Assembly (NCBI GenBank): GCA_963713795.1
Contig: CAVQNC010000010.1
Span: 103,966-167,965 of the forward strand
Length of the DNA: 64,000 nt
Direction: 5' to 3'
Source of the DNA: an uncultured Chloroflexia bacterium
GTDB lineage: Bacteria > Chloroflexota > Limnocylindria > Limnocylindrales > CSP1-4
Position numbers and translations under genes: made by a program. Of this stretch, positions 30,837 through 46,584 are shown in pieces. Position 1 is the first letter of the stretch. Every line of letters starts with the position of its first letter. The notes under the pieces are model-generated. The model was given only the letters and a program-made list of their open reading frames with translations, made no database searches and had not been told where the DNA came from.

Positions 30837-31601
30837 ATGGTCGAGAAAATGGTTGCCGAGATCTTCGGCACGGCGATTCTGGTCCTTCTGGGCGACGGCG
30901 TTGTAGCGGGTGTCCTGCTCTCGAAGTCGAAGGCCCAGAACTCGGGCTGGATCGTCATAACCATGGCATGGGCATTCGCCGTCTTCATGGGCGTGTGCGT
31001 GGCCGGACCGCTCAGCGGCGCCCACCTTAACCCGGCCGTGACGATCGGCCTTGCCACCTACGGGTCGCTCCAGTCGGGCGCCGGCATCACCTGGGACCAG
31101 GTCCCGCCGTACATTGCCGGTGAGATGATCGGTGCCATGATCGGCGCGATCCTTGTGGTCATCCACTACTGGGATCACTTCAAGGCCACCGAGGACAAGG
31201 GCCTCAAGCTGGCGGTCTTCAGCACGGCCCCGAACATCCGCAACCTGCCGCTCAACCTGGTCTCGGAGATCATCGGCACCTTCGTGCTCGTCTTCGTGAT
31301 CCTCTGCTTCGGCCAGCCCGGTTCCAAGGCCCCGGCGACCATGGGCGCGCTGCCCGTCGCCCTGCTGGTCCTGGTCATCGGCCTCTCGCTCGGCGGTACG
31401 ACCGGATATGCGATCAACCCCGCCCGCGACCTCGGCCCGCGCATCATCCACGCCATCCTGCCAATTCCTGGCAAGGGCGGTTCGGACTGGGAGTACTCGT
31501 GGGTTCCCGTCGTCGGTCCGCTGATCGGCGGCGCAATCGCGGCCATCGTCTACTACGCGGCCTTCACCCAGTTCATCGTCCTCAAGATTCCGGTTTCGTA
31601 A
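30837..31601 (+). CDS. glpF: Glycerol uptake facilitator (MIP/aquaporin family)
   Basis: Two NPA boxes (HLNPAVTIG and AINPARDLGPR); six TM helices; ATG 8 nt after AGGGAG. Confidence 0.9.
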   Translation: MVEKMVAEIFGTAILVLLGDGVVAGVLLSKSKAQNSGWIVITMAWAFAVFMGVCVAGPLSGAHLNPAVTIGLATYGSLQSGAGITWDQVPPYIAGEMIGAMIGAILVVIHYWDHFKATEDKGLKLAVFSTAPNIRNLPLNLVSEIIGTFVLVFVILCFGQPGSKAPATMGALPVALLVLVIGLSLGGTTGYAINPARDLGPRIIHAILPIPGKGGSDWEYSWVPVVGPLIGGAIAAIVYYAAFTQFIVLKIPVS

Positions 31602-31716: not shown

Positions 31717-32715
31717 ATGAAGAAGCTCATCAACGCGCCGGACCGCGTCGTGGACGAGGCGCTGGCCGGCATGGCAGCGGCTCACCCGGATCTGATCCGG
31801 GTCGAGGAGCCAAACATCATCGTCCGAAAGGATGCCCCCAAGCGCGGCAAGGTCGGCATCATCTCCGGCGGCGGGTCGGGCCACGAACCCATGCACGGCG
31901 GCTTTGTCGGCATGGGCATGCTCGATGCCGCCTGCCCGGGCGCTGTGTTCACGTCACCGGTTCCGGATCAGATGCAGGCCGCCACCAGGGCGGTCAACGG
32001 CGGCGCCGGTGTGCTGCACATCGTCAAGAACTACACGGGCGATATCATGAACTTCGACCTCGCGGCTCAACTGACCGAGGCCGAAGGGATCCCGGTGAAG
32101 GCGGTCGTCATCGCCGACGACGTAGCCGTAAAGGACTCGCTCTACACCGCTGGCCGGCGCGGTGTCGGCGGGACGGTGCTCGCCGAGAAGATCGTCGGCG
32201 GCGCGGCCGAGGCCGGCGCCGATCTGGACAAGGTGACGGCCTTGTGCCAGAGGGTCCAGGACAATGTCCGTTCCATGGGCATGGCCCTGACCAGTTGCAC
32301 CGTCCCGGCGGCGGGCAAGCCCACCTTCGAGCTCGCCGACGACGAGATGGAGATCGGCATCGGCATTCACGGCGAGCCTGGCCGGACCAGGATGAAGCTC
32401 GCCCCAGCGGACGACATCGTCGAAATGCTGATGGTGCCGATCCTCGAAGACCTTCCGTTCAAGTCGGGTGACAAGGTGCTCGCCTTCGTCAACGGCATGG
32501 GCGGAACGCCGCTTATCGAGTTGTACGTCGTGTACAACGCGGTCAACAAGATCCTCAAGGGCCGTGGGATCACGATCGCACGGAACCTCGTCGGGAGTTA
32601 CATCACGTCCCTGGAGATGGCCGGCTGCTCTATCAGCTTGCTCAGGCTCGACGACGAGATGACCCGCTTCTGGGATGCCCCGGTCCATACGCCGGGTCTT
32701 CGCTGGGGCGTGTGA
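31717..32715 (+). CDS. dhaK: Dihydroxyacetone kinase subunit DhaK (copy 1)
   Basis: GGGSGHEP motif and DhaK fold; ATG after GGAGGAAG. Confidence 0.9.
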
Positions 32716-33365
32716 CGTCGATGGACCAAACCGGCCGGTTGTCGTTCGATGATGTCCGTGGCTGGATCCGGCGCTTCGCGGCGCAGATCGTCGCCAACAA
32801 GAAGTACCTGACCGAGCTCGACTCGGCCATCGGCGACGCCGACCACGGCATCAACATGGATCGCGGCTTCCAGGCTGCGATTCCGAAGCTAGATGCCCTT
32901 ACGGGCGAGGATCCCGGCGCAGCCTGCAAGCTCGTCGGGTCGACGCTCATCTCCACGGTCGGCGGAGCCGGCGGGCCCCTCTACGGCTCGCTCTTCCTCC
33001 AGTTCGGCATCGCCTTGTCCGGCCACGACACGATCAGCCTGAACGAATGGCTGACCGGATTCGACCTGGGCATCGCTGCGATCCAGCGGCTTGGAAAGGC
33101 CGAGGCCGGCGACAAAACGATGCTCGATGCCCTCATGCCCGCCCGCGACGCCCTCAAACAGGCTCTCGCCGATGGAAAGAGTCCCAGAGAGGCTCTCCTC
33201 GGCGCGGCCTCGGCGGCCGAGGCGGGGATGATAGGCACCATCCCGATCGTGGCCCGCAGGGGCCGGGCGAGCTACCTGGGAGAGCGCAGCGCGGGCCATC
33301 AGGACCCGGGCGCGACCTCCTCGTACATGCTCGTCAAAGCCGCAGCGGACGAATGGGCGGCCTAG
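32712..33365 (+). CDS. dhaL: Dihydroxyacetone kinase subunit DhaL (copy 1)
   Basis: DGDHGINM ADP-binding motif; 4-nt overlap with dhaK. Confidence 0.85.
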
Positions 33366-34979: not shown

Positions 34980-36167
34980 ATGGATAGACAGTCAGGCGCA
35001 CCAAGGGTCGTCATCATCGGCGGCGGTGGCACGGGGGGAGCCCTCGCCCACGATCTGACTCTGCGCGGGGTCCGCGTGACCCTCGTCGAGCGCGGCGAAA
35101 TCACTTCGGGGACGACGGGCCGGCACCACGGCCTGCTCCACTGCGGCGCCCGGTACGCGGTCAAGGACCGCGAGTCCGCCGTTGAGTGCATTGAAGAGAA
35201 CACCATCCTGCGGAGGATCGCGCCGGGCTCGTTCGAGCTCAACGACGGGCTCTTCGTCGCGGTCACCGATGCCGAGGCGGATTACGAGAAGGTCTTCTTC
35301 GAGTCGTGCCAGGCCGCCGAGATTCCCGTCAGGAGAGTGGACCGGGCCGGGGCGCTGCGCCTCGAGCCCAGGCTGAACCCGGAGCTCCGGTGCGCCGTCC
35401 AGGTCCCCGACGGCACCATGGACGCGATGCGCATGCCGCTCCGGTTCTTCGCCACCGCCAAGCGCAACGGCGCCGATATCCGGCCGTTCAGCGAGGTCGT
35501 CGGGCTGACCATGACGGACGCGGCGTCGCCGCGCGCGGTCACCGGGGTGGCCGTGAAGGACCTCACGTCCGGCCGCACGTACGAGATCGGCGCGGACCTG
35601 GTGGTCAACGCGGGCGGGCCGTGGGCGGGCAAGGTGGCCGGAATGGCCGGTGTGGACGTGCCGATCCAGCCCTCGCCGGGGATCCTGGTCGCGGTCCGCG
35701 GCCGCTACTGCAACATGGTCGTCAACCGGCTCCACGCCTCCGGCGACGGCGACATCGTGGTGCCCCAGCGCGAGCTCTCAGTGATCGGAACGAGCTCGTG
35801 GGTCACCGACGATCCGGACCACCTGACCGTCCCATCCGACCACGTGGAGATGATGTTCCGCGAGGGATCGATGATGATCCCGTCGATCCGCACGGCCGAG
35901 ATTCGGGCGACCTGGTCCGCCGCCCGGCCGCTCATCGGCGAGCGCGGCGCCTCCACCGGCCGCGAGCTTTCGCGCACTTTCAAATGCTTCGACCACGCGG
36001 CCGACGACGGCGTCGAGGGCTTCGTGACCATCTCGGGAGGCAAGGCGACGACGCTGCGGGCGATGGCGGAGGCGACGGCCAACGTCGTGTGCCGCAAGCT
36101 CGGCGTCGACCGGCCGTGCATGACCCGCGAGGTCGTGCTGCTGCCCCACACGGAGTACTACGCATGA
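34980..36167 (+). CDS. glpA: Glycerol-3-phosphate dehydrogenase flavoprotein, GlpA-type but truncated (about 395 aa, lacks the C-terminal BFD-like domain)
   Basis: N-terminus VVIIGGGGTGGALAHDLTLRGVRVTLVERGEITSGTTGRHHGLLHCGARYAVKDRESAVECIEEN is collinear with the E. coli GlpA N-terminus as recalled. Confidence 0.8.
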   Translation: MDRQSGAPRVVIIGGGGTGGALAHDLTLRGVRVTLVERGEITSGTTGRHHGLLHCGARYAVKDRESAVECIEENTILRRIAPGSFELNDGLFVAVTDAEADYEKVFFESCQAAEIPVRRVDRAGALRLEPRLNPELRCAVQVPDGTMDAMRMPLRFFATAKRNGADIRPFSEVVGLTMTDAASPRAVTGVAVKDLTSGRTYEIGADLVVNAGGPWAGKVAGMAGVDVPIQPSPGILVAVRGRYCNMVVNRLHASGDGDIVVPQRELSVIGTSSWVTDDPDHLTVPSDHVEMMFREGSMMIPSIRTAEIRATWSAARPLIGERGASTGRELSRTFKCFDHAADDGVEGFVTISGGKATTLRAMAEATANVVCRKLGVDRPCMTREVVLLPHTEYYA

Positions 36168-36955
36168 GCGCCCAGGAGTCTCCGGTGACCGAAGGGGCTC
36201 AGGCCCCCGTCGATACCCACGCCACCTCGGGAACCGGCCGCCACGTCCGCTTCCGCGTCTCCCGTTTCAAGCAGGGCGACCAGCAGCCGCACCTCCAGGA
36301 CTACGACGTGGAGATTGCGCCGGCGACCACGGTCCTGGACGCCCTGACGGCGATCCGCCGCGACCAGGACCCGACGCTGCTCCTGCGCCATTCCTGCTTC
36401 CACGCGTCCTGCGGCACCTGCGGCATGCGCGTCAACGACAAGGAAGAGCTGGCCTGCGTCACGGCCGTCAGCGACCTCGACTGCGACACGGTCAAGGTGG
36501 AGCCGATCGCGAACCAGCGACTCGTTTCGGACCTGGTCACGGACATGGTCGACTTCTACGATCGGTTCCGGGCGATCGGCCGGCCGCTCATCCGCCAGAG
36601 TGAGGTCTACCCGGACTCGGAGGTCGCGCCGGGAGTCGAGGAGCACCGCCGCTACGAGAGCTGCATCGAATGCGGGCTCTGCCTGTCGGCCTGCCCGATC
36701 GTAGCCAGCGACGGCCGCTACCTCGGCCCGGCGGCGCTCGCGGCGGCCCAGCGTACCGTCGCCGAGCCGCGCGGTGGCGACAGCTTCTCCGTCCTGCGCC
36801 TGACCGACGACGCCCAGGCGGCCTGGCGCTGCCACCTGTCGTTCGAGTGCTCGGAGGCCTGCCCGTCCAACGTGGATCCGGCCGGCGCCATCATGTTCAT
36901 CCGCCGCAAGCTGGCAGGCCAGCGCGTCAACTCGATCTTCGGGAGGCGGTCATGA
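36164..36955 (+). CDS. Succinate dehydrogenase/fumarate reductase-type iron-sulfur subunit (SdhB-like: 2Fe-2S plus two 4Fe-4S-type motifs)
   Basis: ATGA overlap with the glpA stop. CFHASCGTCGMRVN...C plant-ferredoxin motif; CIECGLCLSACP; CHLSFECSEACP. The 5' 286 codons of track ORF 35306..36955 are a frame artefact. Confidence 0.75.
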   Translation: MSAQESPVTEGAQAPVDTHATSGTGRHVRFRVSRFKQGDQQPHLQDYDVEIAPATTVLDALTAIRRDQDPTLLLRHSCFHASCGTCGMRVNDKEELACVTAVSDLDCDTVKVEPIANQRLVSDLVTDMVDFYDRFRAIGRPLIRQSEVYPDSEVAPGVEEHRRYESCIECGLCLSACPIVASDGRYLGPAALAAAQRTVAEPRGGDSFSVLRLTDDAQAAWRCHLSFECSEACPSNVDPAGAIMFIRRKLAGQRVNSIFGRRS

Positions 36956-37353
36956 CCGTAAGGGAAGATAGGGCAAGCCCCCGGCGCCGCGGCGTCTACG
37001 GCTGGGTCGACCCGCGGGGTCGCCGGCTGGGTCACTGGGCCTTCATCCTCAACCGCCTGACCGGTCTGGGCATCCTTCTGTACCTGGGCCTGCATCTGGT
37101 CGTGCTGTCGATGCTGGCCACCGGCCCGAATGCCTGGGACAACTTCGTCTCCCTCGCCCTGACGCCCGTCTTCCTGTCCCTGGACGTGATCCTGATCTTC
37201 GGCCTGCTGCTCCACGGGCTCAACGGCATCCGCGTGACGCTTGTCGGCTTCGGCCTGGTGGTCGATCGCCAGAAGGCCCTCTTCGTGTCGCTGATGGTGA
37301 TAGGAGCCATCATCCTGGTCGTGGCGTCGCTCCACATTTTCGAGGTGGGGTAA
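36952..37353 (+). CDS. SdhC-like membrane anchor/cytochrome b subunit
   Basis: ATGA overlap with the FeS gene; 133 aa, three TM helices with His residues (HWAF, LHLV, LLHGLNG). Confidence 0.65.
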   Translation: MTVREDRASPRRRGVYGWVDPRGRRLGHWAFILNRLTGLGILLYLGLHLVVLSMLATGPNAWDNFVSLALTPVFLSLDVILIFGLLLHGLNGIRVTLVGFGLVVDRQKALFVSLMVIGAIILVVASLHIFEVG

Positions 37354-37356
37354 GCG

Positions 37357-37791
37357 ATGTCTGAGCCAATCTCCGGCCACTCCAAAGCGACCGATCAGCC
37401 GGTCGATCACGATGTCGAGCGCTCGACCTGGACGCCTTCGAACGAGTCCGGGAAGCCGGCCTGGGGCTGGATCCTGCAGGCGGTCACCGGCGTGCTGGTG
37501 CTGTTCCTTCTGACCTTCCACATGATCGCCAACCATTTCATGGTGACCAAGGGCCTGCGCGACGCCGCCTCCGTGGCCCAGTGGTTCTCGAACCCGCTCG
37601 TCGTCGTCCTGGAGGTAACCTTTCTGGTGATGGTGACGTGGCACGGGCTGCTCGGCCTGCGCGCGATCATCTTCGACTTCGGCTTCAGCCCGAAGACGGA
37701 GCGCCGGATTACCTGGACCCTGACAGTGGTTGGCACAGTGGCGGTCGTCTATGGAATCTGGCTTACGTCGGTGATCGTCTCCCGGGGTTGA
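37357..37791 (+). CDS. SdhD-like hydrophobic membrane anchor subunit
   Basis: 144 aa, three TM helices (FHMIANHFMV, WHGLLGLRAI); follows the SdhC-like gene after 3 nt. Confidence 0.6.
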   Translation: MSEPISGHSKATDQPVDHDVERSTWTPSNESGKPAWGWILQAVTGVLVLFLLTFHMIANHFMVTKGLRDAASVAQWFSNPLVVVLEVTFLVMVTWHGLLGLRAIIFDFGFSPKTERRITWTLTVVGTVAVVYGIWLTSVIVSRG

Positions 37792-37812: not shown

Positions 37813-40425
37813 GTGGCGGATGCGACCGGGCCGCTGGTAGGGATAGTCGTCGTCTCACACTCGGCGCGGATCGCCGAGGGTGTCGTCGAGCTGGCCCGGC
37901 AGATGGCCGGCCCGGACGTGCCTCTCGTTGCCGCCGGAGGCATGGCCGACGGCGCCATCGGAACCGATGCGGTTCTCATAGCGGAGGCGATCGCCCGGGC
38001 CGACGTTGGTGGCGGCGTGCTCGTTCTGGCCGACCTCGGCAGCGCGGTCCTGAGCACGAAACTGGCCCTGGACATGGCCGATCCGGAACTGGCCGCCCGG
38101 ACTCGCCTGAGCAACGGGCCGATCGTCGAAGGCGCGGTCGTGGCCGCGGTCCGAGCCAGGGGCGGCGCGACGGTCGACGAGGTTCTGCGCGAGGCGGAGG
38201 CCGCTGCCTCGGTGGTCAAGGACTCTGGTGACGAGGCTGCCGACGTCTTCGGTGCGGCCGGCCCCGGGCCGAGCCTGGCGGCCGGAGCGGCCGGGACGAG
38301 CGGCGGCGTGGCCGGTGCGGCCGGCGGGCCCAGCACGTTCACCCTCGAGGTCTCGAACCCGTCCGGCCTGCATGCCCGGCCGGCGGCGGAGTTCGTCGCC
38401 ACCGCCGCACGGTTCCGATCCGCGATCCGGCTCGAGAACCTGACTCGGGGCACGTCACCGGCCGACGCCAGGAGCCCGACGGCGATCATGTCGAGCGGAG
38501 TGGCCCAGGGCCACGCGATCCGCGTGTCGGCTGAGGGAGAGGACCAGGACGCGGCGCTTGCGGCGCTCCTGTCGCTCGCCGCTGGCGGCTTCGGCGAGGG
38601 CAAGGCGGCCGCCACCCGACCCGGGCCGGCCGCGGCTCGGCCGGCGGCCGAATTGCCGCTCCTGGCGCCCCGCCCGCGCCTGGCCGGGGCCATCGCCGGG
38701 ACGCCGGGCGCAGCCGGCGTGGCCGTCGGGCCGGTGTGGGTCTACGCCTCGCGGCCGCCGTCCGATGCCGCCGCTCACGGGGCCGGGGCGACTTACGATC
38801 CCGGCGCGGCAGTCCGTTCGGCGGCCGCCGAAGCCACCGCCCAGCTCAACGCGCTGGCGGCACGGGTGCGGCGGCATGGTCGAGACGAGGACGCCGGCAT
38901 CTTCCGAGCCCAGGCCATGATTGCCTCCGACCCGCAGCTCCTGGACGATGCCGTGGCGCGGGCGGCCGCGGGCGAGGACCCGGGCAGGGCCGTGGAGTCG
39001 GCCGCGGCGATGGCCGCGGAACGCATGGAGGCCCTGCCGGACGCGCTCCTGGCGGCCCGTGGGGCCGACTTCCGCGACGTGGGGGCCAGGATCGCCCGGA
39101 TCGTTCGAGGTGAGTCGCTGACCCTGCCGGCCGTGCCTTCCATCGCGGTCGCCGAGGACCTGCCGCCCTCCGTCGCGGAGGAGCTGCCGGAAGATCTCCT
39201 GCTCGGAGTGGCGATCCAGGGCGGCTCGGCCACGGCGCACGTCGTAATCCTGTCCCGCGGCCGGGGGATCCCGGCCGTAGTGGCGGTGCCCGGACTCCTC
39301 GAAGCGGCGGCGAAGGCGTCGGCCATCGCCATCGACGGCGAGTCGGGCGAAGTGGTCCTCGATCCGGACGCGGCCGCGCTGGCCGAGCTGGCGGCTCGCG
39401 CCGAGGCCTTGGCCGAGCGCCGCCGCGCCGCGGCCGCGCTTCGCGGCGACAAGGGAGCCACTGCCGACGGGCAGCCCGTTGCGCTGCTGGCGAACATCGG
39501 CGGCCCTGATGATGCCGGCCGCGCCATCGAAGCCGGAGCCGAGGGCGTGGGCCTGTTTCGAACCGAGTTCCTGTTCATGAAGCGCCGGACGGCTCCGACC
39601 GAGGACGACCAGGTCGAGCCGTATCGGCGCGTCTTCGAAGCCTTCGGGCGCGATCGCCCGGTCGTCGTCCGCCTGGCGGACATCGGCGGCGACAAGGACC
39701 TGCCTTACCTGGGCTTGCCGCACGAGGAGAACCCGTTCCTCGGAGTCCGGGCGATCCGCCTGGCCGAGGGTTCGCGCGAGCTGCTCGCCGCCCAGCTGCG
39801 GGCGATCTGGCGGGCCGCCGGGCTGGCCGGCGTGGTGCCGCACGTCATGGCGCCGATGGTCTCCACGCTGGAGGACGCCCGTCTCCTGGTCGAGCTGCGC
39901 GACGAAGCCCGGGCGGTGGTGGCGGCCGGGGGCGCGCCCCTGCCCGAGCGCATGGTCACCGGAATCATGGTCGAGGTCCCGTCCGCGGCGATCCTGGCTC
40001 CGGAGCTCGCGCGGCTGGTCGATTTCTTCTCGATCGGCACGAACGACCTGACCCAGTACACGCTGGCGGCGGATCGCTCGAACCCGGCTCTGGCCCACTT
40101 CCAGGATGCCCTCCATCCCGCTGTTCTACGCCTCATCGCCGGCGTGGTCGCCGGGGCCGACGAGGCCGGCATCCCGGTCGCGGTCTGCGGGGAACTGGCC
40201 GGCGATCCGATCGGGGCCCTCGTGCTGGTCGGCCTGGGTGTCGACGAACTCTCCGCGGACGCCGGCTCGCTCGATGACGTGCGGGCGGCGCTCGCGGGCG
40301 TGACGCGCGCTCAGCTGGCCGATCTTGCGCAGGACGCCCTCAAGGCGGCCGATGCCGCGGCGGTCAGGGCCATGGCCCGCGAGCTCCTGCGGCCGCTCGC
40401 AGCGGGGCCCGGGCGCACGCCGTGA
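37813..40425 (+). CDS. dhaM: Multiphosphoryl transfer protein: DhaM-type EIIA(Man)-like domain, HPr domain and full Enzyme I (PEP-protein phosphotransferase)
   Basis: N-terminus VGIVVVSHSARIAEGVVELARQM matches the DhaM N-terminus. HPr GLHARPAAEFV. EI phospho-His region GGSATAHVVILSRGRGIPAVV and PEP-utilizing signature FFSIGTNDLTQYTLA. 870 aa. Confidence 0.85.
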   Translation: MADATGPLVGIVVVSHSARIAEGVVELARQMAGPDVPLVAAGGMADGAIGTDAVLIAEAIARADVGGGVLVLADLGSAVLSTKLALDMADPELAARTRLSNGPIVEGAVVAAVRARGGATVDEVLREAEAAASVVKDSGDEAADVFGAAGPGPSLAAGAAGTSGGVAGAAGGPSTFTLEVSNPSGLHARPAAEFVATAARFRSAIRLENLTRGTSPADARSPTAIMSSGVAQGHAIRVSAEGEDQDAALAALLSLAAGGFGEGKAAATRPGPAAARPAAELPLLAPRPRLAGAIAGTPGAAGVAVGPVWVYASRPPSDAAAHGAGATYDPGAAVRSAAAEATAQLNALAARVRRHGRDEDAGIFRAQAMIASDPQLLDDAVARAAAGEDPGRAVESAAAMAAERMEALPDALLAARGADFRDVGARIARIVRGESLTLPAVPSIAVAEDLPPSVAEELPEDLLLGVAIQGGSATAHVVILSRGRGIPAVVAVPGLLEAAAKASAIAIDGESGEVVLDPDAAALAELAARAEALAERRRAAAALRGDKGATADGQPVALLANIGGPDDAGRAIEAGAEGVGLFRTEFLFMKRRTAPTEDDQVEPYRRVFEAFGRDRPVVVRLADIGGDKDLPYLGLPHEENPFLGVRAIRLAEGSRELLAAQLRAIWRAAGLAGVVPHVMAPMVSTLEDARLLVELRDEARAVVAAGGAPLPERMVTGIMVEVPSAAILAPELARLVDFFSIGTNDLTQYTLAADRSNPALAHFQDALHPAVLRLIAGVVAGADEAGIPVAVCGELAGDPIGALVLVGLGVDELSADAGSLDDVRAALAGVTRAQLADLAQDALKAADAAAVRAMARELLRPLAAGPGRTP

Positions 40426-41432
40426 GAATGGCGAGCCTGGGCAGGTCCGGCCTCCCCGTCAGCGAGATCGGGCTGGGCCTGGCCGCGATCGGCCGGCCGG
40501 GCTATATCAACCTCGGACGCGACCGCGACCTCGGCGCCGATCGCAGCGTCGAGGTCATGCGGAGCAGAGCCCACCACGTGCTCGACGCCGCCTACGCCGG
40601 CGGCGTGCGTTACTTCGACGCCGCGCGCTCGTACGGCCTGGCCGAGGACTTCCTGGCCTCGTGGCTGGACGCACGCGCCCTCGGGCCCGCCGACGTGACC
40701 GTGGGCTCCAAGTGGGGCTACCGCTACACGGCCGACTGGCAGGTCGGGGCGAGCGTCAACGAGATCAAGGACCACTCCGTCGCGAACCTGCGGCGCCAGG
40801 CGGCCGAGAGCCGCGGGCTGCTGGGAGACCGGCTGCGCCTCTACCAGATCCACTCCGCCACTCTCGAGAGCGGCGTGCTCGACGACGCCGAGGTGCTGGC
40901 CGAGCTGAGCTCGCTGGCCGGGGCCGGCCTGGCGGTCGGGCTGTCGGTGAGCGGTCCGCGGCAGTCGGACGTGATCCGTCGCGCGCTCGAGGTCCGGGTC
41001 GACGGCCGCCCGCTCTTTGCCTCCGTCCAGGCGACCTGGAACCTGCTCGAGCCGTCGGCCGGACCCGCGCTGGCCGAGGCCAGGGAGGCGGGCTGGGGAG
41101 TGATCGTCAAGGAAGCGCTGGCGAACGGCCGCCTGGCCACGCCGGCGGCGCCGGCGGCCCTCGCGGCGCCGGGTTCGCCGGGCCGGCCCGCTCCGCTCGA
41201 GAACGTGGCCGGGCGCCTCCGCTGCGCCGCCGACGCCGTGTCCATCGCCGCCGCGCTGGCTCAGCCGTGGTCCGACGTAGTCCTGTCGGGAGCGGTCAGC
41301 CCTGAACAGCTCACCAGCAACCTTGCCGCGGTCGACGTGCGGATCTCGCCCGACGACCTGGCCGAACTCGGGTCCATGGCCGAGCCGCCGGCATCGTACT
41401 GGGCGACGCGAGCCTCGCTGGCCTGGGCCTGA
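40422..41432 (+). CDS. Aldo/keto reductase
   Basis: 336 aa; AKR (alpha/beta)8 barrel features; ATGA overlap with the dhaM fusion gene. Confidence 0.7.
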   Translation: MRMASLGRSGLPVSEIGLGLAAIGRPGYINLGRDRDLGADRSVEVMRSRAHHVLDAAYAGGVRYFDAARSYGLAEDFLASWLDARALGPADVTVGSKWGYRYTADWQVGASVNEIKDHSVANLRRQAAESRGLLGDRLRLYQIHSATLESGVLDDAEVLAELSSLAGAGLAVGLSVSGPRQSDVIRRALEVRVDGRPLFASVQATWNLLEPSAGPALAEAREAGWGVIVKEALANGRLATPAAPAALAAPGSPGRPAPLENVAGRLRCAADAVSIAAALAQPWSDVVLSGAVSPEQLTSNLAAVDVRISPDDLAELGSMAEPPASYWATRASLAWA

Positions 41433-41459: not shown

Positions 41460-41710
41460 GGTGAGGGCGGCCGCGCCGCCCGCCCGCGCGGCCCCGCGCC
41501 GCCCGCCCGCGCGGCCCCGCGCCGCCCGCGCGCCGAGTCGGCCGCCTGCGTCCTTCGCCGCCTGCCTGCACCCCGCGTCGCCCACCGCGAGCTGTGCAGC
41601 CGCCCGCGACCTGTGCCGCCCGCGCGCCGCCCAGCGTGTCGCGCCCGCCCCGAGCTGTCCCGCCCCGAGCTGTCCCGCTCGCGCCCGAGCTGTCCCGCCC
41701 GCCCTGAGCC
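41460..41710. repeat. GC-rich degenerate tandem repeats in an intergenic region (23-nt unit GCCGCCCGCCCGCGCGGCCCCGC x2 plus partial copy; 14-15-nt unit CCCGAGCTGTCCCGC x3)
   Basis: Read directly from the sequence between the AKR stop and the SorC-family regulator start. Confidence 0.6.
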
Positions 41711-41841
41711 GATTCCTCTTGGGGATCGACGACAACTCATGACCCGCACCGTGAATCAGCCGGCTCCGGCGGGACCCGCTCTGGTAACATTGGGCACACG
41801 CTCACCACTGAGCAAATGATCGGGCCGCCTGGGGTTGGCAG

Positions 41842-42906
41842 TTGGAAGAGAACGCCGGCCAGAGCCTGTACGAATTCCTGGCGCGCATCGCCCATCGTTA
41901 CTACGTCGACGATCGGACGCAGGAGGAGATCGCGCGCGAATTCGCTCTGTCGCGGGCGAAGGTCCAGCGGCTCCTCGTCCAGGCGCGCGAGGCGGGCGTG
42001 GTCGAGATCAGGATCCAGGCCCCGCCGTGGCTCCACCTGGAGCTCGAGGACGAGTTCGCCGCCGAGTTCCGTCTGACCGACGTGATCGTCAGCACGTCGC
42101 GGCCGGACCCGCAATCGCAGCGCGAGGCGGTGGCCCGGAGCGCGGCCCAGTACCTTGAGCGGCGCCTCGGCAAAGGAGCGATCGTGGCGGTGGGCCACGG
42201 GCGCGACACCGGCGAGGTGCCGCGTTTCTTCCGGCCGGGCCGCCGGCTCGATTGCACGTTCGTCAGCGCCATGGGCGGGTCGCCGCGGGTCGATGCCCCA
42301 ACCAACCCCAACGAGATCTGCCGCGCCCTGGCGCAACAGTGCGGCGGCCGGGCCGAGAGTCTCTACGCCCCGGCCTACGTCGAGAGCGAGGAGATGCGCG
42401 ATGGGCTGCTCCAGCAGGAGGCGATCTCGCACACCCTGCGGCTTGCCGCACAGGCGAGCGTCGCCCTCGTCGGCATTGGCGGCACGAACGAGAACTGCAC
42501 GATGGTCCGCAGCGGCTGTCTCTCCACCGACGAGATAGGCCGGCTCGTGGGCCAGGGGGCCGTCGGCGACGTGCTCGGGAACTACATGGATGTCGATGGT
42601 CGGTTGATCGCGGCGCCCCACCGGGACCGGCTGGTGGCCCTGTCCGTAGACGAGCTGCGCCGTATCGAGACCGTCGTCGCGGTCGTGAGCGAGGCCGAGA
42701 AGCCGCTCGCGATCCTCGGCGTCCTGCGAGCGGGAGTCATCGATGTCCTGATCGTCGACGAAGCCAACGCCAGGGCCGTGCTGGACCTGGTGCGCCGCGG
42801 CCGTGATTCGGGCGACCCGGCCGGCAGCGAAGAGGTTCCGGCGGGCAAGAAGGCGACAGCCCGGGCTGCCCGGGACAAAGGAGTGATCGGCTCGACGAAG
42901 GATTGA
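41842..42906 (+). CDS. SorC/DeoR-family sugar-binding transcriptional regulator
   Basis: TTG start. N-terminal HTH LYEFLARIAHRYYVDDRTQEEIAREFALSRAKVQRLL, then a sugar-phosphate-binding CggR/SorC-type domain. Confidence 0.75.
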   Translation: MEENAGQSLYEFLARIAHRYYVDDRTQEEIAREFALSRAKVQRLLVQAREAGVVEIRIQAPPWLHLELEDEFAAEFRLTDVIVSTSRPDPQSQREAVARSAAQYLERRLGKGAIVAVGHGRDTGEVPRFFRPGRRLDCTFVSAMGGSPRVDAPTNPNEICRALAQQCGGRAESLYAPAYVESEEMRDGLLQQEAISHTLRLAAQASVALVGIGGTNENCTMVRSGCLSTDEIGRLVGQGAVGDVLGNYMDVDGRLIAAPHRDRLVALSVDELRRIETVVAVVSEAEKPLAILGVLRAGVIDVLIVDEANARAVLDLVRRGRDSGDPAGSEEVPAGKKATARAARDKGVIGSTKD

Positions 42907-43016
42907 ACAGCCGCGGAGCGGTGGCGTAACCAGTTCGGCCGCGAGCCCGGAGGGCTCTGGCCGATGGCCGGAGTAGGCGTAAGCCGGACAGCGAAGCGTC
43001 CCAAGGAGGTGCTGGA

Positions 43017-43871
43017 GTGCCGATCGTATCGACAAAAGAGATCCTCAACAGGGCATTTGCCGAACGCTACGGGGTCGCGGCGATCAACGTCATCAACGAC
43101 CTGACGATGGAGGCCGTCCTGGCCGCGGCGGAGGAACTGAAAGCCCCCGTCATCCTCCAGACCTCGGTCAAGCACGTGAAGATGACCGGGCTGGACGCCA
43201 TGTACGCGATGTGGGTGGAGTACACCAAGCACGTCTCCGTCCCGGTCGCCCTCCACCTGGACCATTGCCCGGAGCGCGACGTCATCAGCGCCTGCCTCGC
43301 GAAGGGCTGGAACTCGGTCCTCTTCGACGCCAGCAAGCTTTCGGTCGAGGAGAACAAGCGCCAGTGCGCCGAGGTCGTCGCCGAGGCCCGCCGCTACGGC
43401 GCCGACGTCGAGGGCGAGATCGAGGGCTTCAAGCGGACCGAGGAGATGACCGGCGACGAGGCCGAGCACGTCCAGAGCCTCGAGACCGTCATCGACTTCG
43501 TCCACGCCACCGGCGTCGACGTCTTCGCGCCGGCGATCGGCAACGCCCACGGCATGTACAAGACGACGCCGCACCTCGACAGCCAGCGGGTAACCGACAT
43601 CGTCGAGGCAACCGGGATTCCGGTGGCGCTCCACGGCGGCACCGGCATGACCCCGGAGCAGTTCAGCGACCTGATCTCCCGCGGTTGCGCCAAAGTCAAC
43701 ATCTCCACCGCGCTCAAGATCGCCTTCATGAAGTCGGGCTACGACTTCATGACCGAACACCCGGGCGACTACGACCCGCCCAAGATCTTCACCGCCCAGC
43801 GCGCCGCGGTGATGGAAATGGCCAAGTACCACATCCGGCTGTTCGGCAGCGAAGGCAAGGCCTGGAAATGA
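43017..43871 (+). CDS. Class II ketose-bisphosphate aldolase (FbaA/GatY/KbaY family)
   Basis: GTG after AAGGAGG. Collinear with E. coli GatY as recalled ([30 protein letters not shown]). Confidence 0.85.
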
Positions 43872-44641
43872 ACGCGCTGGTCTTCGACTGCGACGGCGTC
43901 CTGGCCGACACCGAGCGGTACGGACACCTGCCGTCGTTCAACCAGACGTTCCGCGAGTTCGGACTCCCTCTCGAGTGGTCGGAGGAGGAGTACGGGCGAA
44001 AGCTGCTCATCGGCGGCGGCAAGGAGCGCATGTCGAGCGAACTGACGCCCGACTTCGTTCGGGCCAACCGCCTGCCCTCCGACCCCGAAGCTCTGGCGGC
44101 AGAGGTCGCCAAGTGGCACAAGCGCAAGACTGCCCTCTATACGGAGATGGTCGCCGCCGGCAAGCTGCCGCCGCGGCCGGGCATCCGGCGGGTGATCTCC
44201 GACGCGCAGGACGCGGGCTGGAAGCTGGCGGTGGCGTCCACGTCAGCCGAGGCGTCGGTCCACGCCATCCTCGAGTTCGCGGTCGGCAAGGAGCGCGCCG
44301 ACCTCTTCGACGTCTTCCTGGCCGGCGACTGCGTTCCCAAGAAGAAGCCGGCTCCGGACATCTATCTCCTCGCGCTCGAGAAGCTCGGCGTCGACCCCGC
44401 CGAGGTGCTCGTCGTGGAGGACTCTCGCAACGGGCTCGAGGCGGCCTACGCCGCGGGCCTGCGCTGCCTGGTAACGGTCAACGGCTACACCGAGAAGGAG
44501 GACTTCAGCGAGGCAATCCTCGTGGTTTCGTCCCTTGGTGATCCGGATGGGGAGCAGACGACAGTCATCGCCAACCGCTCGGCCGCGCGGCCGGGTGCGT
44601 ACGTGACCCTCGCCGACCTGGAGGCCTGCCTCGCCCCGTAA
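43868..44641 (+). CDS. HAD-IA family hydrolase (phosphatase/phosphomutase-like)
   Basis: DxD motif FDCDGVLAD at the N-terminus; ATGA overlap with the aldolase gene. The 5' part of track ORF 43211..44641 is a frame artefact. Confidence 0.75.
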
Positions 44642-44683
44642 CTCCGCCCGGCAACCCACCGAAGCAAGGAGAAGGAGGTCCAT

Positions 44684-45355
44684 ATGGCTAAGGCGTCGTT
44701 CGACGACGTCGACCTCGTGCTCAAGACGATGGCCACCACGATCGTCGACAACGCGGAGTACTTCGCCCAACTCGACTCGATCGTCGGGGACGGCGACTTC
44801 GGCTTCTCGTTGCGCAACGGATTCGAGGTCGTGGTCGCCGACTACGACACGTTCGACAAGTCGAGCGTGGGAGCCGTGCTCAAGAAGATCGGCCTCACCC
44901 TCGCCGGCAAGGTCGGCGGAGTTTCCGGCCCCATCTGGGGTACGGCTTTCCTCCGGGCCGGCGTTGCGGCCGGCGATCGGACCGAACTGGCGCCCGAAGA
45001 CCTGATCGCGATGTTGCGTGCCGCGATCACGGGAATCATGGCCCGCGGCGGCGCATCGCTGGGCGAGAAGACCCTGCTCGACGCCCTTGTTCCGGCAACC
45101 AATTCCATGGAGGCGGCGATCGGCGACCCGGCGATGCAAGGCGACCACGGCGTCAAGGCGATCCAGAGTGCCGCTGACGTGGCGGTCAAGGCGGCGGAAG
45201 ACACCAAGTCCATGCTGGCGATGCGCGGTCGGGCCGCGTACACCGGCGAGCGGAGCATCGGCTCCGTCGATGCCGGCGCGACGGCGATCGGCGTAATCCT
45301 CCAGGCCATCGCGTCGGCGTGGCGCGAAAAGTACGGAAAGGAAGCACAGGCGTGA
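44684..45355 (+). CDS. dhaL: Dihydroxyacetone kinase subunit DhaL (copy 2, divergent)
   Basis: DhaL fold with variant nucleotide motif DGDFGFSL; 223 aa. Confidence 0.75.
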   Translation: MAKASFDDVDLVLKTMATTIVDNAEYFAQLDSIVGDGDFGFSLRNGFEVVVADYDTFDKSSVGAVLKKIGLTLAGKVGGVSGPIWGTAFLRAGVAAGDRTELAPEDLIAMLRAAITGIMARGGASLGEKTLLDALVPATNSMEAAIGDPAMQGDHGVKAIQSAADVAVKAAEDTKSMLAMRGRAAYTGERSIGSVDAGATAIGVILQAIASAWREKYGKEAQA

Positions 45356-46347
45356 GGAAGTTCCTGAACGACCCGAAGAAGTTCGTGCCCGAGTTCCTCG
45401 AGGGCATCGCGCTCGCGAGCGGCGGCACGCTCAAGTACGAGCCGAAGTACAACCTGATCTACCGGGCCGACATGCCCAAGAAGGATCGGGTCTCGATCAT
45501 CCAGGGTTCCGGGTCCGGCCACGAGCCGGCGCACACCATGATCGTCGGCCCCGGCATGCTCGACGCGGCATGCCCGGGCGACGTCTTCGCCGGCCCGCCC
45601 GTTGAGTTCGTCACCGAGACGTCCAAGCTGATGGACACCCCGGCCGGCGTGCTCTACATCGTCAACAACTACACGGGCGACCGCACCGCCTGGGAGATGG
45701 CCAAGGAGCTCTGCGAGGCCGAGGGCCAGAAGATCGGCTATCTGCTCGTCAACGACGACGTGGCGGTCAAGGACTCCACCTGGACGATCGGCCGGCGCGG
45801 CGTGGCCGGCAACTTCTTCGTGATCAAGGCCGTCGGCGCCAAGGCCGACAAGGGCGGCTCGCTCGAGGAGTGCGTCAAGGTCGGCGAGAAGGTCATCAGC
45901 CGCGTCCGGACGATGGGTATCGCCCTGTCGTCCTGCACGCCGCCGGTCCGCGGCACGCCGCTCTTCGAGATCGCCGACGGCGAGATGGAAGTCGGCATCG
46001 GCATCCACGGCGAGCCGGGTCGCGAGCGGCGCAAGATGGGCACGGCCGACGAGATCGTCGACGTGCTCCTCGGCGCCATCGTCCCCGACCTGCCGTTCAA
46101 GGCAGGCGACGAGGTCGCGCTGATGGTCAACGGCCTCGGCGGGACCCCGATCAGCGAGCTCTACCTGCTCTACGGCATTGCCCACAAGAAGCTGGCCGCG
46201 CAGGGCATCAAGGTCTTCCGCAGCTACGTCGGCGAGTACTGCACCTCGCTCGAGATGGCGGGCGCGCACATCTCGATGCTCAAGGTGGACGACGAGCTCA
46301 AGGAACTGCTCCTCGCCCCGGCGGAGGTCGCCGTCCGGGTCTTCTAG
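45352..46347 (+). CDS. dhaK: Dihydroxyacetone/ketose kinase subunit DhaK (copy 2)
   Basis: GTG 45352 overlapping the dhaL2 stop (GTGA), preceded by GGAAAGGAAG; GSGSGHEP motif. Confidence 0.8.
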   Translation: MRKFLNDPKKFVPEFLEGIALASGGTLKYEPKYNLIYRADMPKKDRVSIIQGSGSGHEPAHTMIVGPGMLDAACPGDVFAGPPVEFVTETSKLMDTPAGVLYIVNNYTGDRTAWEMAKELCEAEGQKIGYLLVNDDVAVKDSTWTIGRRGVAGNFFVIKAVGAKADKGGSLEECVKVGEKVISRVRTMGIALSSCTPPVRGTPLFEIADGEMEVGIGIHGEPGRERRKMGTADEIVDVLLGAIVPDLPFKAGDEVALMVNGLGGTPISELYLLYGIAHKKLAAQGIKVFRSYVGEYCTSLEMAGAHISMLKVDDELKELLLAPAEVAVRVF

Positions 46348-46368
46348 ATCTGTCCGATCCGCAGCGGG

Positions 46369-46409
46369 TGGCGGCCCGGCCCAGGTGGGCAGGGCCGCCA
46401 CTCTTTGTG
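46369..46409 (+). terminator. Rho-independent-like terminator: 10-bp perfect stem GTGGCGGCCC / GGGCCGCCAC followed by TCTTTGTG
   Basis: Read directly, 20 nt downstream of the dhaK2 stop. Confidence 0.55.
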
Positions 46410-46584
46410 CCCGGCCGCTTCGTGGCCGCGCCCGGGCCGGCCGCGGCGGCGCTTCGGCCCCGGCGTCCTGGCGTTTCGGGCCGGCCGCGCCGGCGCTTCG
46501 GCCGGGCCGTGAGCGCCCGCCACGGAGGTGGGCGCGAAATCGGGTACAGTCATGGTCTAGATCGGAGTCGGGAGCCGCGCCAAG

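Follow-up and report, generated by a model that had tools for sequence, protein, structure and literature searches.

A conserved operon of class II aldolase, CbbY-type phosphatase and a divergent DhaL-DhaK kinase in soil Chloroflexota: a candidate route from a small carbonyl compound to sugar phosphates

A 64,000-nucleotide stretch of DNA from an uncultured Chloroflexia bacterium (hereafter, the window) carries a conserved operon, shared by soil Chloroflexota and many Actinomycetes and composed of five consecutive genes on the + strand (positions 41842–46347). We tentatively propose, from the sequences of its products, that this is an autonomous operon in which a small free carbonyl compound would be converted to a sugar monophosphate by a kinase, an aldolase and a CbbY-type 1-phosphatase. 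Synthesis of sugar phosphates from such a compound appears a more likely function of the module than degradation of a new ketose; the operon's own SorC regulator probably represses it. The genes are as follows.

41842–42906, + strand: SorC/DeoR-type regulator, HTH and sugar-phosphate-binding domain (PF04198, 6e-63; N-terminal HTH)
43017–43871, + strand: divergent class IIb ketose-bisphosphate aldolase, Ald2 (PF01116, 9e-80)
43868–44641, + strand: CbbY-family HAD phosphatase (PF00702/PF13419, 1e-28)
44684–45355, + strand: DhaL2, nucleotide-binding subunit (PF02734, 2e-43)
45352–46347, + strand: DhaK2, substrate-binding subunit (PF02733, 2e-114)

The gene order given in the initial annotation is thus confirmed. 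The overlapping stops and starts that it described are found at two of the four junctions, where direct reading of the sequence gives 4-nt overlaps between the aldolase and HAD genes (ATGA) and between DhaL2 and DhaK2 (GTGA); HAD is translationally coupled to the aldolase, and DhaK2 to DhaL2. The other two junctions are gaps, of 110 nt between SorC and the aldolase and of 42 nt between HAD and DhaL2, with good Shine-Dalgarno sequences before the aldolase and DhaL2. The true start of DhaK2 is the GTG at 45352 and that of HAD the ATG at 43868, a longer HAD reading frame from 43211 having been rejected.

In 61 of 68 Limnocylindrales loci the aldolase-HAD-DhaL-DhaK block is unbroken and its flanks vary; it is found again in Solirubrobacterales, in the cultured Actinomycetes Rathayibacter, Aeromicrobium and Arthrobacter, and on a Cryobacterium plasmid, where it adjoins a Tn3 transposase. 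The block is an autonomous unit, and the view of these genes as a real, tightly linked functional unit is upheld. Within Limnocylindrales the module is nearly universal, and DhaK2 is 87–98% identical across 80 species; the NCBI annotation gives all module genes generic names. Neither a conserved transporter nor a conserved dehydrogenase adjoins the module in the Limnocylindrales loci, which fits a small diffusible substrate, and no erythrulose-type isomerase accompanies it in that order.

Sequence comparison places the HAD enzyme, initially described as a generic sugar-phosphate phosphatase, in the CbbY family. Its PDB matches include CbbY from A. thaliana (PDB code: 4uav; E 1e-58) and R. sphaeroides (PDB code: 4uar; 1.5e-44), and it is 49% identical to AtCbbYA. 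Of the 47 positions that are invariant in six bona fide CbbYs, 46 are kept, cap included, against 19 in a CbbZ-type outgroup, and the cap-domain motifs FNxxF, W, GGKER and HxxKT are present. The enzyme is set apart from CbbY of Rhodobacter sphaeroides and Arabidopsis (CbbYA/B) by a five-residue cap insertion, common to other DhaKL-linked copies. Unlike CbbY, it is encoded outside any cbb operon, coupled to a class II aldolase and in an operon with a DhaKL kinase; Rubisco is absent from the window. It had been supposed that only photosynthetic organisms and autotrophs possess CbbY orthologues (PMC9833046). CbbY cleaves the 1-phosphate from XuBP, and weakly from FBP, and does not attack monophosphates (PMC10212915, PMC9833046); its preference for XuBP over RuBP is about 1000–5000-fold (PMC10212915). 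The HAD enzyme is accordingly predicted to be a ketose-1,n-bisphosphate 1-phosphatase. Cleavage of a ketose 1-phosphate, as initially envisaged, is disfavoured because a phosphatase beside the kinase would be futile. With both enzymes in one operon, we infer that the phosphatase must act on a bisphosphate, and its CbbY type suggests an aldol condensation with subsequent dephosphorylation.

The aldolase shares the fold and the metal and catalytic motifs (LHLDH, GNAHG and LHGGTG) of class II FBP/TBP aldolases (FbaA, CbbA, GatY/KbaY and the B. methanolicus FBA), and is approximately 37% identical to Bacillus FBAs and KbaY-type enzymes. It differs from that class in carrying KVNISTALK, or more generally NISTA(L/V)K, where K(I/V)NV(N/D)TE is usual. 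The NIST motif is kept in all 69 Limnocylindrales copies and also in Solirubrobacter, Cryobacterium and Shinella. Among the NCBIfam models, Ald2 passes only the cut-off of the broad ketose-bisphosphate aldolase subfamily TIGR00167 (221 versus 215.6) and reaches no FBA, GatY or KbaY equivalog cut-off. As it falls below the FBA cut-offs and lacks the N/D-T-E motif, FBP or SBP may not be its product.

The kinase subunits were compared with a canonical pair encoded elsewhere in the window, in a separate upstream glycerol/DHA operon (glpF-dhaK1-dhaL1-glpK-glpD-like) that also contains a fused DhaM.

31717–32715: DhaK1, canonical
32712–33365: DhaL1, canonical
37813–40425, + strand: DhaM-HPr-EI triple fusion, outside the module (EIIA-man, PTS-HPr and PEP-utilizers; matches to TIGR02364 and TIGR01417)

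The description of DhaL2-DhaK2 as a second, divergent pair is correct, since DhaK2 scores 384 bits against TIGR02363 (cut-off 406; DhaK1, 494) and is only 49% identical to DhaK1. DhaL2 is 36% identical to DhaL1 and scores 178 bits against TIGR02365 (cut-off 138). The pair represents a distinct subfamily and did not arise by recent duplication of the canonical one. The closest relatives of known structure are E. coli DhaK (E 9e-80) and DhaL (4e-36), and the two-subunit K/L architecture is common to DhaK-DhaL-DhaM of E. coli and Lactococcus lactis, as are the catalytic His56, Asp109 and His218 of DhaK (E. coli numbering) and the three Mg-binding Asp residues of DhaL, which alignment with the E. 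coli, L. lactis and C. freundii proteins shows to be intact in DhaL2. Its variant motif, DGDFG instead of DGDHG, is indeed present (LDSIVGDGDFG, with Phe replacing the His of E. coli, L. lactis and DhaL1), but it is uninformative, because the Mg-binding residues are intact and the position varies (L/H/C/F/I/M) among 45 fused kinases. The module differs from DhaK-DhaL-DhaM in its gene order, L then K, and in its linkage to an aldolase and CbbY-type phosphatase, the known system being PTS-dependent. DhaK2 carries the motifs GSGSGHEPAHTMIVG, VNNYTGDR and GIHGEPG, and its subfamily departs from E. coli and L. lactis DhaK at G52S, G62M, K104N and I110R/K. Gly occupies positions 52 and 62 in 96% and 98% of 107 other K domains; within the subfamily, Ser52 and Met62 occur in 358 of 359 sequences, and Asn104 and Arg/Lys110 are near-invariant. 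These changes at near-invariant glycines, together with the coexisting canonical DhaK1L1, argue that the substrate is not simply DHA, as does one Solirubrobacter operon in which DhaK2 stands alongside another DhaKL pair. A substrate other than DHA is possible.

That the module lacks a dhaM of its own agrees with the initial annotation. The suggestion that it borrows the DhaM-HPr-EI fusion 5 kb upstream fares less well, as the fusion belongs to a separate operon and just three of 80 related loci have a DhaM no more than 10 kb from DhaK2. The lack of a linked dhaM within that distance in the other 77 favours independence from a dedicated DhaM. The donor would be either ATP or DhaM; the fusion possibly serves DhaL2.

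Under the proposed scheme, which reverses the direction initially suggested, DhaK2/DhaL2 would bind the carbonyl compound covalently via the conserved His and then phosphorylate it. Candidate substrates are DHA, glyceraldehyde, glycolaldehyde and erythrulose; dihydroxyacetone, giving DHAP, seems the most likely, with D-glyceraldehyde or another short aldehyde as the alternative. The aldolase would join DHAP to an aldose phosphate (GAP, erythrose-4-P or a shorter aldehyde phosphate) to form a D-threo ketose 1,n-bisphosphate, namely fructose-1,6-P2, sedoheptulose-1,7-P2 or xylulose-1,5-P2. The D-threo configuration is preferred by CbbY and is also made by FBA-type aldolases. Removal of the 1-phosphate by the CbbY-type enzyme would render the sequence irreversible, and F6P, S7P or Xu5P would enter gluconeogenesis or the pentose phosphate pathway. 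The poor FBPase activity of the characterised CbbYs (PMC9833046) counts against this scheme.

Gluconeogenic or regenerative pairs of FBA and bisphosphatase follow the same logic, from triose phosphate through ketose bisphosphate to ketose monophosphate beside a gene for a triose-producing kinase. They include E. coli glpFKX, which encodes the FBPase GlpX, fba-glpX of B. methanolicus pBM19, which belongs to the SBPase variant of the RuMP cycle, and DAS-DAK-FBA-FBPase of the yeast XuMP cycle. The module has a CbbY-family HAD in place of GlpX or class I FBPase, and a DhaKL-type kinase in place of GlpK, Pfk or fused DAK. The condensation reading draws further support from Shinella, in which the same aldolase-HAD pair ends a polyol-uptake/FGGY-kinase operon near GlpD-like and tpiA genes, a parallel to GlpX in glpFKX, and from the operons of Aeromicrobium (Ald-HAD-DhaL-DhaK-RpiB-TktN-TktC, the last two a split transketolase) and Cryobacterium (rpiB and split transketolase, plus a MIP channel and a tpiA whose product passes the TPI model). 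Some Solirubrobacterales have a transaldolase-like gene in place of aldolase and HAD, adjoining DhaL2-DhaK2, which recalls the classical alternative of transaldolase versus SBPase for adding C3 to an aldose phosphate. The link that some carriers show to transketolase and Rpi likewise agrees with the FBA and bisphosphatase systems (PMC11611044).

The module was also compared, from published descriptions, with the tetritol pathway of Mycobacterium smegmatis (LerK/DerK, LerI, DerI), whose LerK we take to be a DAK-family kinase. In that pathway the kinase acts on a non-DHA ketose and feeds the pentose phosphate pathway (PMC10733421, PMC12780249). The module lacks its tetritol dehydrogenase, LerI and DerI, and the pathway in turn lacks an aldolase and a CbbY-type phosphatase. 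An analogous catabolic role, close to the initial annotation and in our view unlikely, would have DhaK2L2 make a ketose 1-phosphate from a non-DHA short-chain ketose such as L-erythrulose and the aldolase split it into DHAP and an aldehyde, with HAD as an accessory. The separate DhaK2 subfamily, changed at near-invariant residues beside catalytic His56, would suit this role, as would the tpiA and rpiB homologues in Cryobacterium and Aeromicrobium. DAK-family erythrulose kinases serve tetritol catabolism in M. smegmatis (LerK; PMC10733421, PMC12780249); in Propionibacterium and Sinorhizobium, erythrulose-1-P has been proposed to be split into DHAP and formaldehyde (PMC10733421); and L-erythrulose supports growth of one Microbacteriaceae isolate (PMC12780249). 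However, the full CbbY bisphosphatase signature would be left unexplained, no conserved polyol dehydrogenase, transporter or LerI/DerI-type isomerase accompanies the module in Limnocylindrales, and the Cryobacterium RpiB, which passes the generic RpiB model, scores 119 bits against a D-erythrulose-4-P isomerase cut-off of 240. It is also doubtful, if conceivable, that DhaK2L2 phosphorylates glycolaldehyde (or D-glyceraldehyde) instead of DHA, the aldolase then forming xylulose-1,5-bisphosphate from DHAP and glycolaldehyde-2-P and the CbbY-type enzyme releasing Xu5P; this would constitute a carbon-conserving route of C2 assimilation. It builds on the sole biochemically established CbbY activity, with its strong preference for XuBP (PMC10212915), and agrees with the D-threo stereochemistry of FBA-type aldolases. 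Moreover, it would account for a second kinase beside the canonical DHA kinase, for the transaldolase-like exchange (a C3 unit and glycolaldehyde-P also give Xu5P) and for the transketolase, RpiB and TpiA linkage, through which Xu5P would be consumed and DHAP regenerated. A GlcG-like gene lies 3' of DhaK in Cryobacterium and 5' of a lone DhaK2 copy (locus L015), and glycolaldehyde presumably shares the carbonyl-plus-adjacent-CH2OH geometry of DHA. Against it, a natural glycolaldehyde kinase is absent from the searched literature (zero occurrences of the term), the Gly to Met/Ser changes may simply exchange one packing arrangement for another that compensates (Gly-Tyr to Met-small residue) and leave the pocket unaffected, and the Shinella pair sits in a glycerol-like locus devoid of any DhaKL.

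Formaldehyde assimilation resembling the XuMP cycle appears very improbable. Here the transketolase would act as a dihydroxyacetone synthase, forming DHA from formaldehyde and Xu5P, and the module would take DHA to F6P with its analogues of DAK, FBA and FBPase, which together with DAS make up the specific enzyme set of the yeast cycle (PMC11611044). Mycobacterium sp. JC1 has a described dihydroxyacetone synthase, one has been conjectured for Rhodococcus (PMC4505118), and the Aeromicrobium and Cryobacterium operons have a suitable composition. Yet the split transketolase is missing from the module in the window, the 80 Limnocylindrales loci, Rathayibacter and Arthrobacter; genes for methanol or formaldehyde oxidation are not linked, and many other pathways use split transketolases. 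Little credence can likewise be given to the absence of any dedicated pathway, in which a housekeeping FBP aldolase, a redundant DHA kinase and an unrelated HAD would be co-transcribed for regulatory convenience. Core metabolism would show the same near-universal occurrence and high DhaK2 identity, and the generic NCBI names are in keeping with it, but the four genes stay together and translationally coupled across two phyla and on the plasmid, and subfamily-specific residues co-occur in all four proteins.

The SorC regulator falls below every NCBIfam equivalog cut-off; its best solved relative is 3kv1 (ligand unknown), and CggR is distant. In 54 of 68 loci the regulator gene is immediately followed by that of the aldolase. 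A conserved palindromic operator emerged when 62 upstream regions were aligned, and the transcription signals flanking the operon are as follows.

41785–41822, + strand: promoter/operator region upstream of SorC
41785–41790, + strand: -10-like TAACAT
41791–41804, + strand: degenerate palindrome O1, TGGGCACACGCTCA
41809–41822, + strand: O2, TGAGCAAATGATCG
46360–46409, + strand: terminator-like GC-rich hairpin followed by UCUUUGUG (RNA fold, terminator scan)

The lineage consensus TGAGCAATTGCTCA is at least 90% conserved in the alignment, with TAGAGT-like -10 and TTGC-like -35 elements in front of it; the copy in the window has three mismatches to it. A scan of 1.46 Mb of loci allowing up to two mismatches returned 59 matches, 45 of which lie within 80 nt upstream of a SorC start, in 45 of the 62 loci. 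SorC opens the operon and is probably autoregulated. At the other end, the strong hairpin begins 13 nt past the DhaK2 stop, with a folding energy of -44.9 kcal/mol (z = -3.6 versus shuffles), and is also detected by the terminator scan.

The module comprises five genes running head to tail on the forward strand, in the order given by the initial annotation, and each is supported by Pfam matches with E-values from 1e-28 to 2e-114:

41842-42906, + strand, SorC-type regulator (PF04198, 6e-63, with N-terminal HTH matches)
43017-43871, + strand, class II aldolase (PF01116, 9e-80)
43868-44641, + strand, HAD hydrolase (Pfam)
44684-45355, + strand, DhaL2 (Pfam)
45352-46347, + strand, DhaK2 (PF02733, 2e-114)

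The overlapping stop and start codons that had been described as coupling these genes are found at the aldolase/HAD (ATGA) and DhaL2/DhaK2 (GTGA) junctions, whereas the other two junctions are spacers of 110 nt and 42 nt, both with strong ribosome-binding sites as read from the sequence.

A -35/-10-like promoter is common to the SorC upstream regions of 62 loci, and the palindrome TGAGCAATTGCTCA comes after it. Matches with up to two mismatches occur 59 times in 1.46 Mb, and 45 of these are no more than 80 nt away from the SorC start. The copy in the window is degenerate (TGAGCAAATGATCG at 41809) and is accompanied by a second, half-conserved site at 41791. No conserved operator was seen between SorC and the aldolase, where the spacer keeps only the ribosome-binding site. 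Given an operator upstream of SorC and a spacer of this kind, the five genes look like a single autoregulated transcription unit. About 13 nt past the DhaK2 stop codon starts a hairpin of -44.9 kcal/mol (z = -3.6), followed by UCUUUGUG, in a window with a G+C content of about 69%. The regulator has the HTH and PF04198 domains of SorC/DeoR-type sugar-phosphate regulators. Its assignment as an orthologue of the FBP-sensing CggR was not supported, as CggR is distant (E 3e-14) and the best match is 3kv1, for which the ligand is not known. GC-rich tandem repeats are present before SorC (41471-41709; 23 nt x2.7, 20 nt x4.8 and 15 nt x2.3) and 3' of the terminator (46433-46509; 22 nt x3.5).

The window is closest to metagenome-assembled genomes (MAGs) of Candidatus Limnocylindrales, in the phylum Chloroflexota. 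When a single genome of each species was scanned, 219 DhaK2 relatives were found; the best 80 of these, whose loci were analysed, are 87-98% identical and all come from Limnocylindrales-type MAGs. Upstream sequence was sufficient at 68 loci; the aldolase, HAD, DhaL2 and DhaK2 genes are contiguous in 61 of them and preceded by SorC in 54. The flanks vary by lineage and are unrelated in function (FeoAB, ribosomal proteins, acyl-CoA enzymes, ABC ATPases), and clustering of 1395 predicted proteins from the 80 loci returned no conserved neighbour that would reveal the substrate. The module is an autonomous, conserved unit. Among the full-length clusters found in a library of 1.84 billion representatives (50% identity clustering), just one, P0121 from Solirubrobacteraceae (66% identity), is nearer to DhaK2 than to canonical DhaKs; the other full-length representatives are at most 52% identical to DhaK2 and more DhaK1-like. 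Members of the subfamily are frequent in cultured Actinomycetes, among them Rathayibacter, Frondihabitans, Herbiconiux, Microbacterium, Arthrobacter and Aeromicrobium. The core of aldolase, HAD, DhaL and DhaK recurs in Solirubrobacterales, Rathayibacter, Aeromicrobium and Arthrobacter, and on a 50-kb Cryobacterium plasmid, where it adjoins a Tn3 transposase. Between lineages, pairwise identities are 66-68% for DhaK, 47-54% for DhaL, 57-63% for the HAD and 41-57% for the aldolase. The operon is real, widely conserved and uncharacterised, and the combination of a DhaKL kinase with a class II aldolase and a CbbY phosphatase is not described in the literature searched.

DhaK2 retains the residues for covalent substrate binding and transfer, His56, Asp109 and His218 (E. 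coli numbering), and its motifs GSGH, NYTGD and GIHGEPG align with those of E. coli DhaK. Its description as a second, divergent DhaK is borne out by 49% identity to DhaK1, the canonical kinase encoded upstream, and by a score of 384.1 bits against the DhaK equivalog model TIGR02363, below the cut-off of 406.25 that DhaK1 passes with 494.5; the Cryobacterium orthologue, at 414 bits, is barely over it. In the DhaK2 subfamily, two glycines that rank among the most conserved in the fold are changed. Ser is invariant at position 52 and Met at position 62, where 96% and 98%, respectively, of 107 other K domains have Gly; 358 of the 359 subfamily sequences, which come from three lineages, have the pair. 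The residue after Met62 is aliphatic or small rather than Tyr/Phe, and near-invariant Asn and Arg/Lys residues flank NYTGD. Both substitutions are at most six residues away from His56, which makes a reshaped pocket plausible; the exchange of Gly-Tyr for Met-small could instead be a compensated packing swap. The presence of DhaK2L2 alongside other DhaKL pairs, together with the altered glycines, argues against plain redundancy. DhaL2 keeps the three Asp residues that bind the two Mg2+ ions (Asp30, Asp35 and Asp37 in E. coli; LDSIVGDGDFG aligned with LDREIGDADHG) and scores 178 bits against TIGR02365 (cut-off 138). Its DGDFG motif had been singled out as a variant; the position varies in fused kinases (L16/H11/C7/F7/I2/M1), and the motif was discarded as a marker of donor or substrate. 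A DhaL "cap" has been described for E. coli (PMC9136124).

The canonical pair belongs to a separate upstream operon, which also encodes glycerol kinase, a GlpD-like dehydrogenase with Fe-S and membrane subunits, and an aldo-keto reductase, and which a repeat-rich gap of 409 nt separates from SorC:

30837-31601, MIP channel
31717-32715, DhaK1, canonical DhaK
32712-33365, DhaL1, canonical DhaL
37813-40425, DhaM-HPr-EI fusion

It had been proposed that DhaK2L2 borrows the DhaM encoded here, 5 kb upstream. Of 80 related loci, only 3 have a DhaM-HPr-EI gene within 10 kb; its nearness in the window is therefore incidental, and it belongs with DhaK1L1. The module operon itself lacks the DhaM that is encoded with DhaK and DhaL in PTS-dependent DhaKLM systems, and DhaM is likewise absent from all eight actinobacterial loci examined. 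That dhaM is missing from every operon examined favours independence of DhaK2L2 from a dedicated DhaM; use of ATP is not thereby proven.

The triple fusion of DhaM (EIIA-man), HPr and Enzyme I has 870 residues. Its stop codon is no more than 3 nt from the start of the aldo-keto reductase gene (40428-41432) and would be overlapped by initiation at an in-frame GTG (40422); the two genes were called translationally coupled. The reductase could form DHA or glyceraldehyde out of glycerol, and its adjacency to SorC recurs in one related locus (L041). Positions 34980-37791 encode a GlpD/GlpA-like FAD dehydrogenase, a 2Fe-2S/4Fe-4S subunit and two succinate-dehydrogenase-type membrane anchors, an unusual four-subunit arrangement of glycerol-3-phosphate dehydrogenase within the glpF-dhaK1L1-glpK operon.

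The aldolase is a class II TIM-barrel enzyme in which LHLDH, GNAHG and LHGGTG, with the catalytic Asp and three metal-binding His residues, align to solved fructose-bisphosphate aldolases (FBAs). It falls below the FBA, GatY and KbaY equivalogs (240 against a cut-off of 343 for TIGR01859; 222 against 383 for GatY), and the sole model that it passes is the broad "ketose-bisphosphate aldolase" TIGR00167 (221 against 215.6). It reads KVNISTALK where five solved FBA/KbaY-type enzymes have K(I/V)NV(N/D)TE; the NIST core is kept in 69 of 69 Limnocylindrales aldolases and also in Solirubrobacter, Cryobacterium and Shinella. FBA-type aldolases yield the D-threo configuration, which is the one that CbbY prefers.

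Of the module's components the HAD says the most. Its best solved relatives are Arabidopsis CbbYA (E 1e-58, 49% identity) and Rhodobacter sphaeroides CbbY (1.5e-44), with the next PDB match weaker by 40 orders of magnitude. Six bona fide CbbY sequences, namely both characterised enzymes and four whose genes adjoin cbbLS-cbbX (in Cupriavidus, Afipia, Acidovorax and Allomeiothermus), share 47 invariant positions. The window HAD, which has the HAD core motifs and the cap residues specific to CbbY, keeps 46 of these and the HADs of Solirubrobacter, Cryobacterium and Shinella 45-47, against 19 in a CbbZ-type outgroup HAD. Copies linked to DhaKL share a five-residue cap insertion, which might alter chain-length preference. 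CbbY takes the 1-phosphate off xylulose-1,5-bisphosphate (XuBP), leaves Xu5P and Ru5P untouched and acts weakly on FBP (PMC10212915, PMC9833046), and its orthologues are believed to be absent outside photosynthetic organisms (reviewed in PMC9833046). The window HAD gene is translationally coupled to that of the aldolase. Of the 55 predicted genes of the window, about 35 were scanned, and neither Rubisco nor phosphoribulokinase was among them.

In other lineages the core, or part of it, is found in informative surroundings. The Aeromicrobium operon runs straight on into rpiB and a split transketolase, and the Cryobacterium plasmid carries these together with a MIP channel, a GlcG-like protein and tpiA. 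By NCBIfam, Cryobacterium TpiA and RpiB seem to be ordinary enzymes and not erythrulose-phosphate isomerases (RpiB scores 119, against a DerI cut-off of 240). Shinella plasmids carry an aldolase-HAD pair without DhaKL that closes an operon of FGGY kinase and ABC transporter genes, with GlpD-like and tpiA genes divergently upstream and a transaldolase-like gene nearby in an E1/E2/E3 cluster. At two Solirubrobacterales loci a transaldolase-like gene of 389-403 residues replaces the aldolase and HAD beside DhaL2-DhaK2. At a Solirubrobacteraceae locus (L081, 5888-7590), aldolase-HAD-DhaL2-DhaK2 directly follows a DhaK/DhaL pair of a third type (GGGSGHLP, NYGGD, GDGDLG), which shares 40-45% identity with DhaK1 and with DhaK2 alike, so that one operon holds two non-canonical kinases.

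The transaldolase-like copies (L092 6951-8120, L094 6689-7900 and L086 12131-13351; 389-406 aa) form a divergent subfamily whose scores, about 100-117 bits, fall short of the Tal cut-off (367), and are situated either beside DhaL2-DhaK2 or in an acetoin-dehydrogenase-like E1/E2/E3 cluster with gph. Those of Solirubrobacterales and Shinella are 46% identical. A GlcG/DUF336-like "heme-binding" protein adjoins a DhaK2-type gene in two distant lineages (L015, 9433-10996, and the Cryobacterium plasmid L085, 13899-14318); in L015 it precedes a lone DhaK2 without DhaL, near an aldehyde dehydrogenase and an FGGY kinase. As GlcG is a member of the E. coli glycolate operon, this neighbour may hint at C2 chemistry.

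Co-transcription of a phosphatase with a kinase makes sense only if the phosphatase acts on a bisphosphate, as the CbbY family does. DhaK2L2 would accordingly supply a triose phosphate, which the aldolase would join by aldol condensation into a ketose bisphosphate, and the HAD, as a CbbY-type 1-phosphatase, would release F6P, S7P or Xu5P. The linked tpiA, rpiB, transketolase and glycerol-type genes would place this product in gluconeogenesis or the pentose phosphate pathway. The requirement for a bisphosphate, the CbbY family membership, the D-threo match, the interchange with a transaldolase and the gene linkage together favour the condensation route, to which we give somewhat less than an even chance. 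It would run in the reverse direction to the scheme of the initial annotation, in which a short-chain ketose is phosphorylated and the product cleaved. The favoured route resembles E. coli glpFKX and Bacillus methanolicus fba-glpX, and the exchange of aldolase and bisphosphatase for a transaldolase-like gene mirrors the SBPase and transaldolase variants of sugar-phosphate rearrangement. A further parallel is the DAK-FBA-FBPase part of the XuMP cycle in yeast (PMC11611044).

Catabolism of a ketose such as erythrulose, the reading nearest to the original scheme, is unlikely; LerI/DerI-like isomerases of the TPI and RpiB families and a tetritol dehydrogenase are absent from the window module and its conserved neighbours, the comparison being one of neighbouring genes. 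The kinase might instead act on an aldehyde acceptor, the best candidate being glycolaldehyde: glycolaldehyde-2-phosphate and DHAP would be condensed by the aldolase to XuBP, the substrate for which CbbY is known, and dephosphorylated to Xu5P. However, no natural glycolaldehyde kinase was found in the literature searched, and we consider this proposal distinctly unlikely. Where a transketolase is linked, as in Aeromicrobium and Cryobacterium, a formaldehyde route resembling the XuMP cycle can be drawn, but is very improbable. There is similarly little chance that the genes are housekeeping functions that are merely co-transcribed.

The module is core to Limnocylindrales, an abundant uncultured soil order, and its presence in many cultured Actinomycetes makes it directly testable. 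Carriers in culture include Rathayibacter sp. VKM Ac-2759, Aeromicrobium fastidiosum, Arthrobacter sp. 260 and Cryobacterium (pA10BH1). The CbbY family was regarded as limited to Rubisco-containing organisms, as a metabolite-repair enzyme; its occurrence in heterotrophic kinase-aldolase operons implies a Rubisco-independent role for the family. Should the substrate be DHA, the module would represent an ordinary triose-to-hexose route with an unusual phosphatase. With another substrate it would open a new way into the pentose phosphate pathway for C2-C4 carbonyls (glycolaldehyde, glyceraldehyde, erythrulose or formaldehyde-derived DHA), and thousands of dhaK, dhaL, fba and HAD annotations would be corrected. 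We know of XuBP only as a Rubisco misfire product. If the glycolaldehyde reading were true, heterotrophic soil bacteria would have XuBP as a true intermediate, within a natural carbon-conserving route of C2 assimilation, and a relative or ancestor of the Rubisco-repair CbbY would serve metabolism in organisms that are not autotrophs. The importance of the module could rise substantially in either case, a substrate other than DHA or XuBP as an intermediate.

A few individual sequences are of additional interest. In one locus (L084, 8340-11683) the gene calls join the aldolase to the HAD (554 aa) and DhaL to DhaK (560 aa, L before K), and L-before-K fusions are also present among the 50% cluster representatives (P0148, P0218 and P0230). 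These may be genuine, with a domain order opposite to that of classical ATP-dependent DAKs, or may be long-read indel artefacts. One MAG has three DhaK2 loci (L004, L007 and L024); in L004 (9720-10996) DhaK2 is preceded only by a DhaL2 remnant of 94 residues, which suggests a partial duplication or an artefact of assembly or binning. Arabidopsis CbbYA is nearer to the aldolase-linked HADs (61% identity to that of Shinella, 47-49% to the DhaKL-linked copies) than to the CbbYs of proteobacterial cbb operons (37-41%), which raises the question of the origin of the plant enzyme.
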